In this document: piece after piece, positions 11,684-15,606 of the stretch
Numbering within the stretch: the first letter of the stretch is position 1
Layout: each line of letters starts with the position of its first letter
IMG/VR virus record: IMGVR_UViG_2695420521_000002
Location: 35,400-99,399 of that record
DNA: 64,000 nucleotides
Strand: one strand, 5' to 3'
DNA from: a virus
Taxonomy: Duplodnaviria > Heunggongvirae > Uroviricota > Caudoviricetes
Notes under the pieces: model-generated
Database searches by the model: none
Told to the model about the DNA's origin: nothing
Seen by the model: only the letters and a program-made list of their open reading frames with translations
Position numbers and translations under genes: made by a program

Positions 11684-11902
11684 TCAAAGTTCCGTATTAG
11701 CTTGTGCTTCGGTCATTTTTCCTAAGTATGAAGGTGGAAGGACTACGCAATTTGTATCCAGTCCCTCACCTATGGCAGCCTGTAAAATTCTGGCTAAGGT
11801 GAGTCTCTTGTTGCGATACCTGGTGATGACATGCCTGATACCGCCGGTCGGCGTAACAAAGGCGATCAGCCAGTAGTGATATTTCCGTCGGAATGGCCAC
11901 AT
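11684..11902 (-). CDS. small hypothetical protein
   Basis: 72-aa ORF immediately upstream of the 420-aa gene and downstream of paired C1 operator-like sites. Confidence 0.35.
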   Translation of the reverse strand: MWPFRRKYHYWLIAFVTPTGGIRHVITRYRNKRLTLARILQAAIGEGLDTNCVVLPPSYLGKMTEAQANTEL

Positions 11903-11916
11903 AGTGCACCTTATGG

Positions 11917-11981
11917 ATTGCTCTAATAAAAAACGTGATGAGTGTACATCACGTTTTAAAAATATGGAATTATTAGAGCAA
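11917..11981. promoter_or_regulatory. pair of inverted C1 operator-like sites flanking a short palindrome
   Basis: ATTGCTCTAATAAAAAA (11917-11933, plus) and GGAATTATTAGAGCAAT (11965-11981); GTGATG...CATCAC between them. Confidence 0.55.
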
Positions 11982-11983
11982 TA

Positions 11984-12685
11984 TTATTCTGATTCTCGCT
12001 CAAAAAACGAGCTAATGAGGGGAAGCCAATCCTCTGACACTTCGCGAGGCCGCGGTTTGCCGTGGAAAAAGATTATTCGGCAGTCCTTTGGTAATGTCCC
12101 GTTCCCCCTGGAGTAACGCGCGCTCGCATATTTTGAACCAGGTTCCACAACATCGGCCTTGTAACTTACAAACCATCCTGGATACAGATCCTGAAATGCT
12201 GGTGTATCATCGCCCATAACCTTCCGTAAGAACCCCTGATCACCCCAGCATTCAGTAGTAACACAACGAGCAATCCAACCTTCTGGATCTTGCCAGAATG
12301 AACTCCAGATATGTGCTTTTACACTATTTGGTATCCACAGGGCACCGCTACCACGATATTGTGGATGGTAAAAATCCCTAAGCATGGTGAAGCTGGTTGG
12401 TGGATTCTCAAGGATTGGGCGTATATCACCGGCAATAACTGTGTCCAAATCCAGATAGAACAGATCATCGGTTATATCCGGTCGGAACAACTCGATTTTC
12501 GCCCACCAGCCACGGCACTTTTGCCACTGGTTGATCAATGGGACAACTTTGACGCCAGGCACATGTAAACGCTTCAGATCTGTCAGGCAAATAATTTCAT
12601 AGCCTTTTGGCAGTTGATTAACCAGCCACTGCACATCGGAAGCGTTATAGTCGCCACCAGAGCGAAGAACTAAAGCAATCTTCAT
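11984..12685 (-). CDS. hypothetical protein with DxD motif (possible nucleotide-sugar transferase)
   Basis: 233-aa ORF; FYLDLDTV motif; overlaps ppp stop by 4 nt. Confidence 0.45.
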
Positions 12686-13374
12686 GCTGCACCATCACCT
12701 TTCACTTTCATCAATGTCAGGTTTCCGCAAAATACGGCACCAGTGTCGATATAATGCTGATTCCAGAATGTCTTCGGGCTTTTCACCGGAGTGTGACCAA
12801 AGATAAAACGATCTGCGCCCGAAATTTCGCCACCAATATCATCCATCGAATCACTGATACGCTCGCGCGCCCAGACAACGTTGAAAAGCGGCACCTCCTT
12901 ACCGAATTGATATTCATTATCCGGATAGTCGGCATGGGCTATAACGATAGTTTCTTGCCCGGTGTTCAACTCAATGATATAGGGCAGACGTCTTACCAGC
13001 TCCACCAGCGCCCTGGCTAATATTTCCTGATCAGTGTCCAACATGAAGAACCATTGTCCACCATTCATTAGCCAGTTATTCACGTTGCCATCAGGACTTA
13101 ACGCATCGAGCATCAACCGCTCATGGTTCCCCATCACTGCCCTGAACCAGGGCATCTGCAATAGTTCCAGACATTCGACATTTTCAGTACCGCGATCGAT
13201 AAGGTCGCCGACCGATATCAGTAAATCCTGCGCCGGGTCAAAATCCACACGATGGAGTTCGGACATCAGTCTGGTGTAGCAACCATGCAGATCACCAACA
13301 ACCCAGACATTCCTGTATTTGGTACCGTCGATACGGTGATAAATTGTGGGTGCCATCATGTATTCTTCAGCCAT
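12682..13374 (-). CDS. ppp: Ser/Thr protein phosphatase (lambda PPase-like metallophosphatase)
   Basis: 230 aa; GDLHG, GDLIDRG, GNHE motifs of calcineurin-like phosphoesterases. Confidence 0.85.
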
Positions 13375-13982
13375 TCTTTAAGAGTCATCTGCGGAATACC
13401 TCCCATTTTCCCGCATGAAACAACGTCAATCTGTTCACGCGCAGACTGGAATAACAAAGGCAGGTGACTTAGATTTTTTGGCGTGCCGCCGGAGTGAACG
13501 CGTGGTTCTTGCGTAGCGTCAACGCCCACCAGGGCTACATGTTTGAATCCGATATGGAAAGCCAGGTTCAGAGCACCATATGCACTATTGCCGCTGGCAA
13601 TTTCATTCTCATCTTCGCAAAGGCCGAAATGTGCGGACCAGCGCCACGCCCACCACTCGGGAGAATTCGTATTTTTTGGCTCCATGCCGCGTTCAGCCAC
13701 ACGACGGAAGCACAGAACGCCATCGCTGACTTCACGTTCTTTAACATCGGGTAGTGCCATGCAATAACAAACACCACGGCGACGGCGGCCACGACCAACG
13801 CGCCGCATATTGTCTGGCGATGGATCAAGTGTGAAAAAATAAGAAGCGCGGTTAAGCCAGTCGATGGCCCCATTGACCGCTATAATCGGCACTCCGCGCG
13901 GCGCAACAAAGTTTGCGGCGCTTGGGCCACTGCCGACGATAATAACGCGATCACTGCCTCTAAATTTATTCTTGGGAAACAT
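13356..13982 (-). CDS. GT42/DUF115-like protein (sialyltransferase-like motif), paralog 1
   Basis: 208 aa; IIVGSGPS...IIAVNG and VALVGVDA motifs resembling Cst-type glycosyltransferases and MptE-like proteins. Confidence 0.45.
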
Positions 13983-14542
13983 TGAATTGCACTGCTCCTA
14001 CTTGCATTCAAAATATGTAAATCTGCGTGTTTTTTGCGGGTATCCAGGAACTGCTGTTGCCATTTTGAAATAGACACCTGCGTTGGATTCCGTAGTGCTT
14101 GAGGGTGCGCGCCATGCCAATGAAGGCCGTTTTGCAGAGAACAGTCATAGCCGACTAATACCACTACTTCAGCCCCTGATTCAGCAGCCAGACTGATAGC
14201 CTGCGCGCCGCTATTTACCCCTTCCGCCGGTCCACAATATCGCCTGTACTCCAACGAAAATGATTTCGCCGCCGCCAGGTTGGCTGTCACTTTGCGGAAC
14301 CTCCCTCCCGGTATGGTGGAACCGTATTGCTTCCACCATGACAAATCACCGGCGTATAAGGCATAAATGTCATCGAACATCTGCCAGGAATTGTTAACCG
14401 CGATGATTGAACAGCCAGTTTTTTCTATAGCAGCACAGTCCTCACGAGTGAGTGAAGGACCGCTACCGACACAAAAAACAGTCCTAGTCGCCCTGGGTGG
14501 TATGTTCATTCTCAGCTGCAAATTCAGCCTCCAGGCGAGCAT
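13880..14542 (-). CDS. GT42/DUF115-like protein, paralog 2
   Basis: 220 aa; FCVGSGPS...IIAVNN, VVLVGYD; paralogous to adjacent ORF; 3' end overlaps it by about 100 nt. Confidence 0.45.
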   Translation of the reverse strand: MLAWRLNLQLRMNIPPRATRTVFCVGSGPSLTREDCAAIEKTGCSIIAVNNSWQMFDDIYALYAGDLSWWKQYGSTIPGGRFRKVTANLAAAKSFSLEYRRYCGPAEGVNSGAQAISLAAESGAEVVVLVGYDCSLQNGLHWHGAHPQALRNPTQVSISKWQQQFLDTRKKHADLHILNASRSSAIQCFPRINLEAVIALLSSAVAQAPQTLLRRAECRL

Positions 14543-14672
14543 TCATTTCAGCGATTACAGGGTCCACTACAGCATCTGTTTCCTGTTCATTACGCGGCAT
14601 GACCGATGCCAGCGACTCATAATTAATCTTGGATGACACGATTATTCTCCCGACGTTAAGGTGCACTACCAC
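14484..14672 (-). CDS. small acidic hypothetical protein
   Basis: 62-aa ORF overlapping the upstream end of paralog 2; weak. Confidence 0.25.
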   Translation of the reverse strand: MVVHLNVGRIIVSSKINYESLASVMPRNEQETDAVVDPVIAEMNARLEAEFAAENEHTTQGD

Positions 14673-14705
14673 AAAGAGCGTATATGCACTAATTAATTTA
14701 TTATT

Positions 14706-15284
14706 TTAAGCAGCATATAACCACTTATCGCCGTTCAATACATGCTCAATAGCCTCACCCTTTTTAAGGCTTATGTATTCCAGGATGGCGGTAATCGCTT
14801 GTTCTGCACCATACGCAAGAACAACGTAGTAACCTTCCTCTCTAAGCCTGCGCATCCAGGCGATCTGCTCTTTCGTCGGGGCTTTACCATTTGGTTCTTT
14901 AAGCTCAATTCGCATGCCGTGATAAATACCGCATGCTTTATCGAGACTCATGTCCGGATAACCTTTTTTCTGCCCTTCAGCCTTCATTTTCCCGGCGGTT
15001 GCTTTTGAACGCTTCCCTCCGTTAGGCGTTGCATGCAACAGCTCATAAATTTCAGGGTAATTGCGCTCGAAGTAATCAAAAATGAAAACCTGTTCGTAGT
15101 GCTCGCAATTTCCTACTCGCAGATCAGGATTTTTTGCCAGTGCTGCAAGCGCCTTCGCATGTGGCGAAACTTCTTTTACCGGGGCAAGTGATAAGAACGG
15201 ATCCTTTTTGGGCTTTGGCTTAACCCATCCTTTCTTTCTGCGCTTACTGAAAGCCAGATACTCTTGCTCAGTAAAGCGCAACAC
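14706..15284 (-). CDS. VRR-NUC domain nuclease-like protein
   Basis: 192 aa; PD-(D/E)xK-like GYPDMSL...IELKEPNGK...GYYVVLAYGAEQA. Confidence 0.6.
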   Translation of the reverse strand: MLRFTEQEYLAFSKRRKKGWVKPKPKKDPFLSLAPVKEVSPHAKALAALAKNPDLRVGNCEHYEQVFIFDYFERNYPEIYELLHATPNGGKRSKATAGKMKAEGQKKGYPDMSLDKACGIYHGMRIELKEPNGKAPTKEQIAWMRRLREEGYYVVLAYGAEQAITAILEYISLKKGEAIEHVLNGDKWLYAA

Positions 15285-15286
15285 AA

Positions 15287-15532
15287 TCAGTCAAATCCTG
15301 CCGGTCGCATGCCATATTTACGCTGTTTTGCGGCCTGCTCTTCCCTGTGCCATTGCGCACACTCAGCGTCACAATAGATGCCTGATTCAATCGGTTCATT
15401 GCAGTAACGACACTTCCCTGTAAATACCTGACTCACGACCTGTGCCTGCTTTCTGATGTTATCAATGGCCATGTCTTTGAGAGCTTCTAACTGATTCATG
15501 CTCAGCTCTGCATCATCAACACGTTCTGCCAA
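15287..15532 (-). CDS. TraR/DksA-type C4 zinc-finger protein
   Basis: 81 aa; CRYCNEPIESGIYCDAEC motif. Confidence 0.6.
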   Translation of the reverse strand: MAERVDDAELSMNQLEALKDMAIDNIRKQAQVVSQVFTGKCRYCNEPIESGIYCDAECAQWHREEQAAKQRKYGMRPAGFD

Positions 15533-15589
15533 TTTTGTTTCCTCATGAAGAACCTACTTAAGGGCAGAATGATACATTTCACAACAAAA

Positions 15590-15606
15590 ATTGCACTAAT
15601 AATTTT
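15590..15606 (+). promoter_or_regulatory. C1 operator-like site (15/17) in divergent intergenic region
   Basis: ATTGCACTAATAATTTT. Confidence 0.55.

Follow-up and report, generated by a model that had tools for sequence, protein, structure and literature searches.

A putative pmgO-pmgP-pmgQ glycosyltransferase cassette in a C1-controlled gene block of a P1-like phage

Gene content of the block and its identity with phage P1

The stretch of DNA analysed here (the window) is 64,000 nucleotides long and represents positions 35,400 to 99,399 of IMG/VR virus record IMGVR_UViG_2695420521_000002. We examined a block at positions 11684-15606 of this window, all of whose genes lie on the minus strand, and three of them, pmgO, pmgP and pmgQ, very probably constitute a glycosyltransferase cassette acting as one unit, as judged by sequence comparison. 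Megablast aligned the block to positions 78528-82450 of phage P1 (AF234172) with 100% coverage and 97.6% identity, and returned further matches in P7, SJ46, RCS47 and other P1-like phage-plasmids. The open reading frames (ORFs) of the block correspond one-to-one with the P1 annotation (pmgL, pmgM, pmgN, pmgO, pmgP, ppp, pmgQ and pmgR), each having the length of its P1 counterpart and differing from it by 0-15 amino acids. An earlier reading of these letters (the original prediction) had described a C1-controlled early operon for sugar-transferase-like paralogs, a phosphatase, a nuclease and a zinc-finger protein, and had left it undecided whether all of them are P1 genes. Because the block, including the genes flanking ppp, is collinear with P1 and carries the same ORF set, this doubt is resolved and it is virtually certain that all of its genes are native to P1. 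The genes and control sites are as follows.

15590-15606, plus strand: C1 operator O26/Op82, two mismatches, at the same position as the annotated P1 O26
15287-15532, minus strand: pmgL, 81 amino acids, putative C4 zinc-finger protein, DksA/TraR-like
14706-15284, minus strand: pmgM, 192 amino acids, putative VRR-NUC-type nuclease
14683-14699, plus strand: C1 operator Op83/Oppp, TATGCACTAATTAATTT, four mismatches, overlapping the predicted promoter PpmgN
14484-14639, minus strand: pmgN, small ORF, PHROG 2350, 51 amino acids in P1
13880-14542, minus strand: pmgO, 220 amino acids, Maf/CstII/MptE-fold (DUF115-like), putative first cassette subunit
13356-13982, minus strand: pmgP, 208 amino acids, distant pmgO paralog, putative second cassette subunit
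12682-13374, minus strand: ppp, 230 amino acids, lambda-type Ser/Thr protein phosphatase
11984-12685, minus strand: pmgQ, 233 amino acids, GT8-like (GT-A, DxD) glycosyltransferase, putative third cassette component
11966-11982, minus strand: C1 operator Op86a (OpmgRa), consensus match and P1 annotation
about 11927-11957, minus strand: terminator-like hairpin with T-run, AAAACGTGATG-tacact-CATCACGTTTTTT, between the pmgQ stop codon and pmgR
11917-11933, plus strand: C1 operator Op86b (OpmgRb), consensus match and P1 annotation
11684-11902, minus strand: pmgR, first gene of the following operon (pmgR-pmgS)

The GC content of the cassette (0.47-0.52) is not different from that of the rest of the window (0.469) and thus gives no sign of a recent foreign origin. 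Divergence from P1 is uneven along the block, with 15 substitutions in PmgM and none in PmgO and PmgR, suggesting mosaic exchange inside the block.

Two transcription units under C1 operators

C1 operators were defined as 17-bp sites that match ATTGCTCTAATAAATTT and overlap a promoter, the overlap being taken from the P1 annotation. Eleven matches to this consensus were observed in the window against 0.34 expected. The operator-like sites that had been reported at 15590 and at 11917-11981 proved to be real, representing P1 O26/Op82 and Op86b/a, respectively, and the sites at 15590, 11966 and 11917 each carry two to three mismatches to the consensus. O26/Op82 is common to the divergent promoters of gene 26 and pmgL. 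By contrast, the proposal of a single operon did not hold, as it had overlooked the internal Op83/Oppp, which is annotated at the homologous position between pmgM and pmgN in both P1 and P7. Because Op83 and the predicted PpmgN lie between these two genes, the block is, on the evidence of its control sites, split into two units, pmgL-pmgM and pmgN-pmgO-pmgP-ppp-pmgQ. The pmgR gene is outside the second unit and was assigned to the next operon because it lies downstream of Op86a/b, promoter PpmgR and the hairpin.

Transcription of each unit would start from a sigma-70 promoter with an overlapping C1 operator, and the hairpin past pmgQ would close the block. Downstream of the pmgQ stop codon the order is Op86a, hairpin and Op86b, in a region with a folding energy of −26.9 kcal/mol; a simple terminator scan did not pick up this hairpin, and a consensus promoter scan of the block returned nothing useful (2 matches versus 6.7 expected). 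Since a C1 operator overlaps each promoter, both units are predicted to be silent in the lysogen. The earlier description of the block as early is not the whole account, given that the P1 annotation also places LPpmgL, a late promoter that depends on Lpa, upstream of pmgL. Within the second unit pmgN, for which a longer form with a GTG start at 14672 is also possible, overlaps pmgO, while pmgO/pmgP, pmgP/ppp and ppp/pmgQ overlap by 103, 19 and 4 nucleotides, respectively. Because successive genes overlap in this way, coupled translation of the pmgN-pmgQ unit is suggested.

PmgO and PmgP are old paralogs with a transferase-type fold

The 220- and 208-amino-acid proteins had been described as paralogs sharing a GxGPS...IAVN motif of GT42/DUF115 enzymes. 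Both indeed contain GSGPS...IIAVN, and in BLASTP they are alike only there. Alignment of the two family profiles by hhalign, however, extended over 166 columns with a probability of 97.7% (E 1.5e-12), so that, at the profile level, PmgO and PmgP are genuine paralogs of ancient origin. For both proteins, AlphaFold models computed from homolog alignments were confident (predicted local distance difference test, pLDDT, 94.7 for PmgP and 86.8 for PmgO) and display the Rossmann-like fold typical of the DUF115/MptE-like family, confirming the fold type that had been proposed. This Maf/CstII/MptE fold alone does not separate sugar transfer from pyrophosphoryl transfer.

Neither protein reaches the gathering threshold of PF01973 (34.6 bits; PmgO 23.4 bits and PmgP 20.9 bits), and weak matches to this family are found in 40 of 41 and 53 of 54 members of the two families. 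The N-terminal GxGPS and a downstream SG...G.D form conserved columns in both family alignments. The PmgO profile is collinear with CstII at GxGPS/N and (N/T)SG...G.D in a match that is itself not significant (E 0.4); in CstII the GxGPS, N, (N/T)S and G.D motifs make up the CMP-sugar site (CMP, cytidine monophosphate). Invariant histidines occur at H141 and H143 in PmgO and at H173 in PmgP, the equivalent of the CstII catalytic histidine not being established among them. Compared with Maf, CstI and CstII (PF01973, GT42), PmgO and PmgP are small (about 200 amino acids versus 632 for Maf), occur as two diverged copies encoded side by side, score under the Pfam cut-off and have no nonulosonic-acid synthesis genes alongside. 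None of the proteins of the block contains a hydrophobic segment of membrane-spanning length.

Membership in the WaaZ family of Kdo III transferases (Kdo, 3-deoxy-D-manno-oct-2-ulosonic acid) was considered and rejected as unsupported, since hhalign probabilities were 15.5% for PmgP and 13.5% for PmgO and TIGR04437 matched with an E of 0.11; a faint PF27901 (WaaZ) match was found on a protein in which PmgO and PmgP are fused. A −1 slippery heptamer, A_AAT_TTA, lies in phase at 13961-13967 (minus strand) within the pmgO/pmgP overlap, and a shift there would fuse roughly the first 197 residues of PmgO with PmgP starting at its residue 6, as in this fusion protein (P0051). A programmed −1 frameshift producing such a fusion in P1 was nevertheless rejected, as the heptamer is not kept in the Citrobacter rodentium (L004) or Chimaeribacter (L089) loci (chance roughly 10%, an estimate). 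Residues 1-16 of PmgO have a pLDDT below 50, most homologs start near residue 12-21 and an ATG (M12) is present at 14509; the annotated start at 14542 is probably too far upstream, the region concerned being 14509-14542.

PmgQ resembles GT8 glycosyltransferases

The PmgQ family profile matched the Skp1 alpha-galactosyltransferase (6mw5) in the PDB with an E of 1.2e-7, followed by glycogenin and GlyE (both 2e-4), in agreement with the transferase that had been suspected from its DxD motif; ubiquitin matches in the same search are repeat artefacts. In the family alignment D79-x-D81 is invariant and H208-G-x-P-x-P nearly so, and hhalign against WaaO (E 1.5e-4) placed these two motifs on the DxD and the C-terminal G-x-x-K-P-W segment of WaaO, respectively. 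PmgQ therefore shares a profile match together with DxD and His motifs with GT8 enzymes such as glycogenin, the Skp1 galactosyltransferase, GlyE and WaaO/WaaJ, while being shorter, at about 230 amino acids, than most of them. The Pfam GT8 family (PF01501) gave weak matches in 9 of 57 PmgQ-family members, none of them significant (best E 0.026).

That PmgQ and PmgO could be glycosyltransferases is not new, because RefSeq already names them 'glycosyltransferase' and 'alpha-2,3-sialyltransferase', respectively. Literature searches returned no paper on the function of pmgO, pmgP and pmgQ or on the cassette. What is added here is the two-unit operon structure, the paralogy and fold of PmgO and PmgP, and the recognition that O-P-Q is a cassette of wide distribution, linked by fusions and distinct from ppp, pmgN, pmgL and pmgM.

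The O-P-Q cassette in other phages and bacteria

Hidden Markov models (HMMs) built from the PmgO, PmgP and PmgQ alignments were searched against 24 loci from a one-genome-per-species scan, against contigs encoding selected homologs and against isolated phages. Wherever the flanking DNA was long enough, PmgQ adjoined PmgP, and PmgO was present in most of the loci. Carriers include lambdoid, HK97-like, podo-, myo- and jumbo phages as well as chromosomal adhesin islands, with hosts among the Enterobacteriaceae, Pseudomonas, Zhongshania, Commensalibacter, Methylophilaceae, Brevundimonas, Rhizobiales, a Sinomicrobium and a Longimicrobiales; wherever the records examined for genomes and isolated phages name a host, it is Gram-negative. 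The order O-P-Q is found in jumbo phage XacN1 and also in myovirus IME392, where P and Q are separated by an additional GT1-like gene. A profile search identified 677 PmgP relatives among 1.84 billion representative proteins, while a scan of viral contigs with the PmgP alignment recovered only near-identical P1 copies.

The other genes of the block do not share this distribution. Ppp, PmgN, PmgL and PmgM occurred in only three loci of the survey, all P1-like, and ppp is missing from every non-P1 cassette examined, so that ppp is a P1-lineage insertion between pmgP and pmgQ; in six loci an S-adenosylmethionine (SAM) methyltransferase is encoded between PmgP and PmgQ instead. Variant cassettes add a GT1-like protein or a weak match to nucleotide-diphospho-sugar transferases. 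A second cassette type, consisting of a PmgO-like protein, a roughly 280-amino-acid protein and a methyltransferase, is present in D3, PAJU2, a Hafnia prophage and the Klebsiella jumbo phage Eowyn.

Fusion proteins join the components in several arrangements, namely O-P (P0051), P-Q (P0299 and P0364), Q-P (P0383), Q-P-methyltransferase (P0347) and methyltransferase-P (P0380). Of all the evidence that PmgO, PmgP and PmgQ share one pathway, that from these fusions is the strongest, and the three proteins probably reside in one complex. A lone PmgQ homolog, 49% identical, was seen at 9001-9633 of a metagenome contig (L116; the homolog is recorded for Candidatus Pantoea floridensis), where it sits between lpdA and acnB with no PmgO, PmgP or phage genes nearby.

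Genomic positions of the cassette

In 9 of 22 diverse loci the cassette follows directly after the terminase-portal-protease-capsid genes or lies among head-completion genes, and D3 orf7 and PAJU2 ORF010 are likewise found among head and head-completion genes. In lambdoid prophages it sits between the lysis genes and the terminase, and lysis genes adjoin it in at least five loci. The IME392 and XacN1 cassettes are located among genes of DNA metabolism (DNA ligase/PolX or ribonucleotide reductase). On the Pseudescherichia and Serratia chromosomes the O, P and Q genes are scattered among inverse-autotransporter/Big_1 adhesin genes, with the PmgO gene co-oriented with an adhesin gene in both.

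Some of these loci and labels deserve separate description. The Serratia plymuthica island (L003; CP180221, 371962-388519) combines O, P and Q homologs with genes for a holin, a lipase, a lipoxygenase and a phage lysozyme and also encodes two Big_1 proteins of roughly 296 amino acids, neither with a beta-barrel domain; its appearance is less that of a prophage than of a secretion locus dependent on a lysis cassette. The PmgO-like ORF010 of PAJU2 (L122) bears the depositor label 'structural protein', as does the capsid protein; should this label derive from an analysis of virion proteins, the enzyme would be virion-associated. The same label on the PmgO-like protein of phage Eowyn is probably homology-based, since the source paper mentions no mass spectrometry.

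The window itself encodes an inverse-autotransporter adhesin of 1211 amino acids at 5511-9146 (minus strand; IAT_beta 6e-109, four Big_1 repeats and Invasin_D3), about 680 nucleotides downstream of the Op88 operator (9824-9840). This gene has about 82% nucleotide identity to chromosomal fdeC and is absent from reference P1, where pmgT-pmgU-pmgV and beyond stand in its place; the sole near-identical record found was the IncY P1-like plasmid p2RM9976 of Escherichia albertii. Its presence is curious beside the O/P/Q-adhesin islands elsewhere, although a cargo hot spot may account for it by coincidence.

A proposed glycan-building pathway

We tentatively propose that pmgO, pmgP and pmgQ represent a lytic-phase glycan-building cassette, with surface-exposed proteins favoured as acceptor. 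The cassette very probably moves as one unit between unrelated phages, and in it PmgO and PmgP would form a heteromeric Maf/CstII-type nucleotide-sugar transferase and PmgQ would act as a GT8-type metal-dependent (DxD and His) hexosyltransferase. A PmgO-PmgP hetero-oligomer is suggested because the two are diverged copies, translationally overlapped and fused in one other phage. These soluble cytoplasmic enzymes would build a short glycan during lytic growth. As donor, PmgO/PmgP might use a CMP-linked ulosonic acid, for instance CMP-Kdo, and PmgQ a UDP-hexose (UDP, uridine diphosphate). Since the cassette comes without sugar-biosynthesis genes, the donors would already be made by the host, and in E. 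coli K-12 the candidate for this fold is CMP-Kdo. Acceptors would be virion proteins in phages and adhesins with immunoglobulin-like (Ig-like) repeats in the chromosomal islands.

The original prediction is supported in large part, its gene calls holding up and its single, purely early operon not. The partners of the cassette (GT8, GT1-like and nucleotide-diphospho-sugar-transferase-like proteins and methyltransferases, fusions included) are a pattern of glycan assembly. A protein as the acceptor is put forward with some reserve. It is favoured by the location of cassettes in head modules and adhesin islands, by a best structural match to Maf and by protein-directed GT8 relatives, the nearest solved of which (glycogenin, the Skp1 galactosyltransferase and GlyE) act on protein-linked glycans. 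The fully specified version, a protein O-glycosylation system of Gram-negative phages in which a CMP-Kdo-using heteromer and a GT8 enzyme modify Ig-like or surface-exposed virion domains and adhesins, is unlikely to hold in every part.

Several observations weigh against such a pathway. Our literature searches found no biochemistry for PmgO, PmgP, PmgQ or the other proteins of the block, and the main text of the 2022 P1 proteome paper makes no mention of these genes. Deletions of all seven genes are non-essential with no plating phenotype, and knock-down by CRISPR interference (CRISPRi) was without effect on plating for all but pmgN (PMC10695390). Glycans go unmentioned in the 2026 cryo-electron microscopy study of P1 particles, and PmgL-Q are not listed among the virion proteins it identified (PMC12810830). 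PmgP of P1 is 55-60% identical to that of HK97-like Pseudomonas and Ochrobactrum prophages, whose virions are unrelated, and such strong conservation fits a conserved host acceptor, such as the inner core of lipopolysaccharide (LPS), better than diverse virion proteins. The IME392 and XacN1 cassettes are among DNA-metabolism rather than structural genes, and CMP-Kdo as the donor is pure inference, the hhalign probability for WaaZ being 13-15%.

Glycosylation of phage particles provides one comparison. As far as we know, demonstrated cases are so far confined to mycobacteriophages, whose cassettes also combine phage-encoded glycosyltransferases with methyltransferases, as in O-P-Q loci. Their genes reportedly lie near structural genes, with products that decorate capsid and tail proteins, and are said to belong to enzyme families other than those of O-P-Q. 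Unlike them, O-P-Q has Gram-negative hosts in all named records examined. Autotransporter adhesins provide a second comparison, having dedicated cytoplasmic glycosyltransferases such as Aah for AIDA-I, TibC for TibA and HMW1C for HMW1. The genes of these enzymes lie in or beside adhesin operons, like the PmgO-like genes of Pseudescherichia and Serratia, but Aah, TibC and HMW1C are GT-B heptosyl- or hexosyltransferases, in contrast to the DUF115 and GT8 proteins of O-P-Q. We know of no report of glycosylation of inverse autotransporters.

P1 is heavily used in genetics, and about a dozen of its pmg genes are still annotated with a 'putative morphogenetic function'; three anonymous ones now come with a concrete and cheaply testable hypothesis. 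If virion proteins are the acceptor, phage virion glycosylation would be extended to Gram-negative hosts, with a bearing on immune recognition of therapeutic phages, and under the protein O-glycosylation version P1 would become a genetically tractable model of it in such hosts. If the acceptor is LPS, the cassette would provide a lytic-phase receptor-editing function, and if neither acceptor holds, the block would be an ordinary non-essential accessory region.

Alternative explanations

Remodelling of LPS or envelope glycolipids is a rather less probable account, in which sugars would be added to a conserved host glycolipid during lytic growth, for example a Kdo-type residue and a hexose to the lipid A-Kdo inner core. 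P1 recognises the terminal glucose of the LPS core as receptor, and an altered or truncated receptor core would, on this account, keep progeny from being lost on debris or infected cells. GT42 CstII and GT8 WaaO/WaaJ act on lipooligosaccharide or LPS, which makes the PmgQ-WaaO match relevant, and faint WaaZ_KDO_III matches (TIGR04437 and PF27901 on the O-P fusion), the Gram-negative nature of all named hosts, the conservation across phages with unrelated virions and the adjoining lysis genes point in the same direction. The WaaZ similarity is not significant, however, the PDB matches of PmgQ include protein-glycan GT8s and no LgtC-type LPS GT8, and deletion mutants plate normally. In addition, with the P1 operon repressed in the lysogen, the time for altering outer-membrane LPS would be roughly one latent period, and the head-module and adhesin-island contexts would go unexplained. 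PmgO and PmgP could also be ATP-dependent pyrophosphokinases resembling MptE or thiamin pyrophosphokinase, or regulators that bind nucleotides, making or binding a small molecule that PmgQ would use or modify. Although the sole Pfam family match is named after MptE, this is improbable in view of partners and fusions that are GT8, GT1-like, sugar-transferase-like and methyltransferase proteins, and of GxGPS, N, (N/T)S and G.D positions that align with the CstII motifs.

The two remaining accounts are both very improbable. Glycosylation of phage DNA before packaging would protect against restriction and be expressed late like Mu Mom. Modification of DNA was a possibility raised in the original prediction, and this account would suit the IME392 and XacN1 cassettes next to their DNA ligase/PolX or ribonucleotide reductase genes. 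No recognisable base-hypermodification gene was found beside the cassette in the loci examined, though, and positions in adhesin islands or next to capsid genes are at odds with this account. Ordinary restriction enzymes cut P1 DNA, on which methylation is the only known modification. Finally, the genes may have no common function, being unrelated accessory genes that became adjacent in P1 by chance; published single deletions without a plating phenotype, and the behaviour of Ppp, PmgN, PmgL and PmgM as lineage-specific additions, would be expected in that case. For O-P-Q this is contradicted by five kinds of fusion protein and by a synteny that spans bacterial phyla and reaches from P1 as far as jumbo phages, while for pmgL, pmgM, pmgN and ppp a lack of common function is possible.

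The accompanying genes of the block

The remaining proteins largely bear out their earlier descriptions. PmgL, predicted to be a TraR-like zinc finger, matches PHROG 54 (DksA-like; E 1.7e-13) and contains four cysteines (CxxC...CxxxC), with no match to Pfam zf-dskA_traR. PmgM, the proposed VRR-NUC nuclease, scores 21.1 bits against Pfam VRR_NUC (PF08774), just below the cut-off of 23.8, matches PHROG 5702 (Holliday junction resolvase) with 4e-27 and carries GYPD...IELK, a PD-(D/E)xK-type motif. Ppp was correctly taken for a phosphatase and is, by its motifs (GDLHG, GDLIDRG and GNHE) and its Metallophos score (59.1 bits; cut-off 21.5), a clear metallophosphatase close to PrpA/PrpB; it stays under the cut-off of the NCBIfam PrpA equivalog (279 versus 326 bits). 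Ppp thus matches the lambda PP/NinI family, and PmgM and PmgL probably belong with the VRR-NUC and DksA/TraR proteins, respectively; the three join an O-P-Q cassette only in P1-like loci. The suggested translational coupling of ppp is the only functional link of the three to O-P-Q, and the PADLOC profiles for anti-phage defence gave no matches for the seven proteins.

The pmgN gene (14484-14672) stands apart in published CRISPRi data, where its targeting lowered plating down to 1.4e-2 even though its deletion is cited as non-essential and the downstream genes are non-essential as well (PMC10695390). This effect could result from dCas12a binding near PpmgN/Op83.

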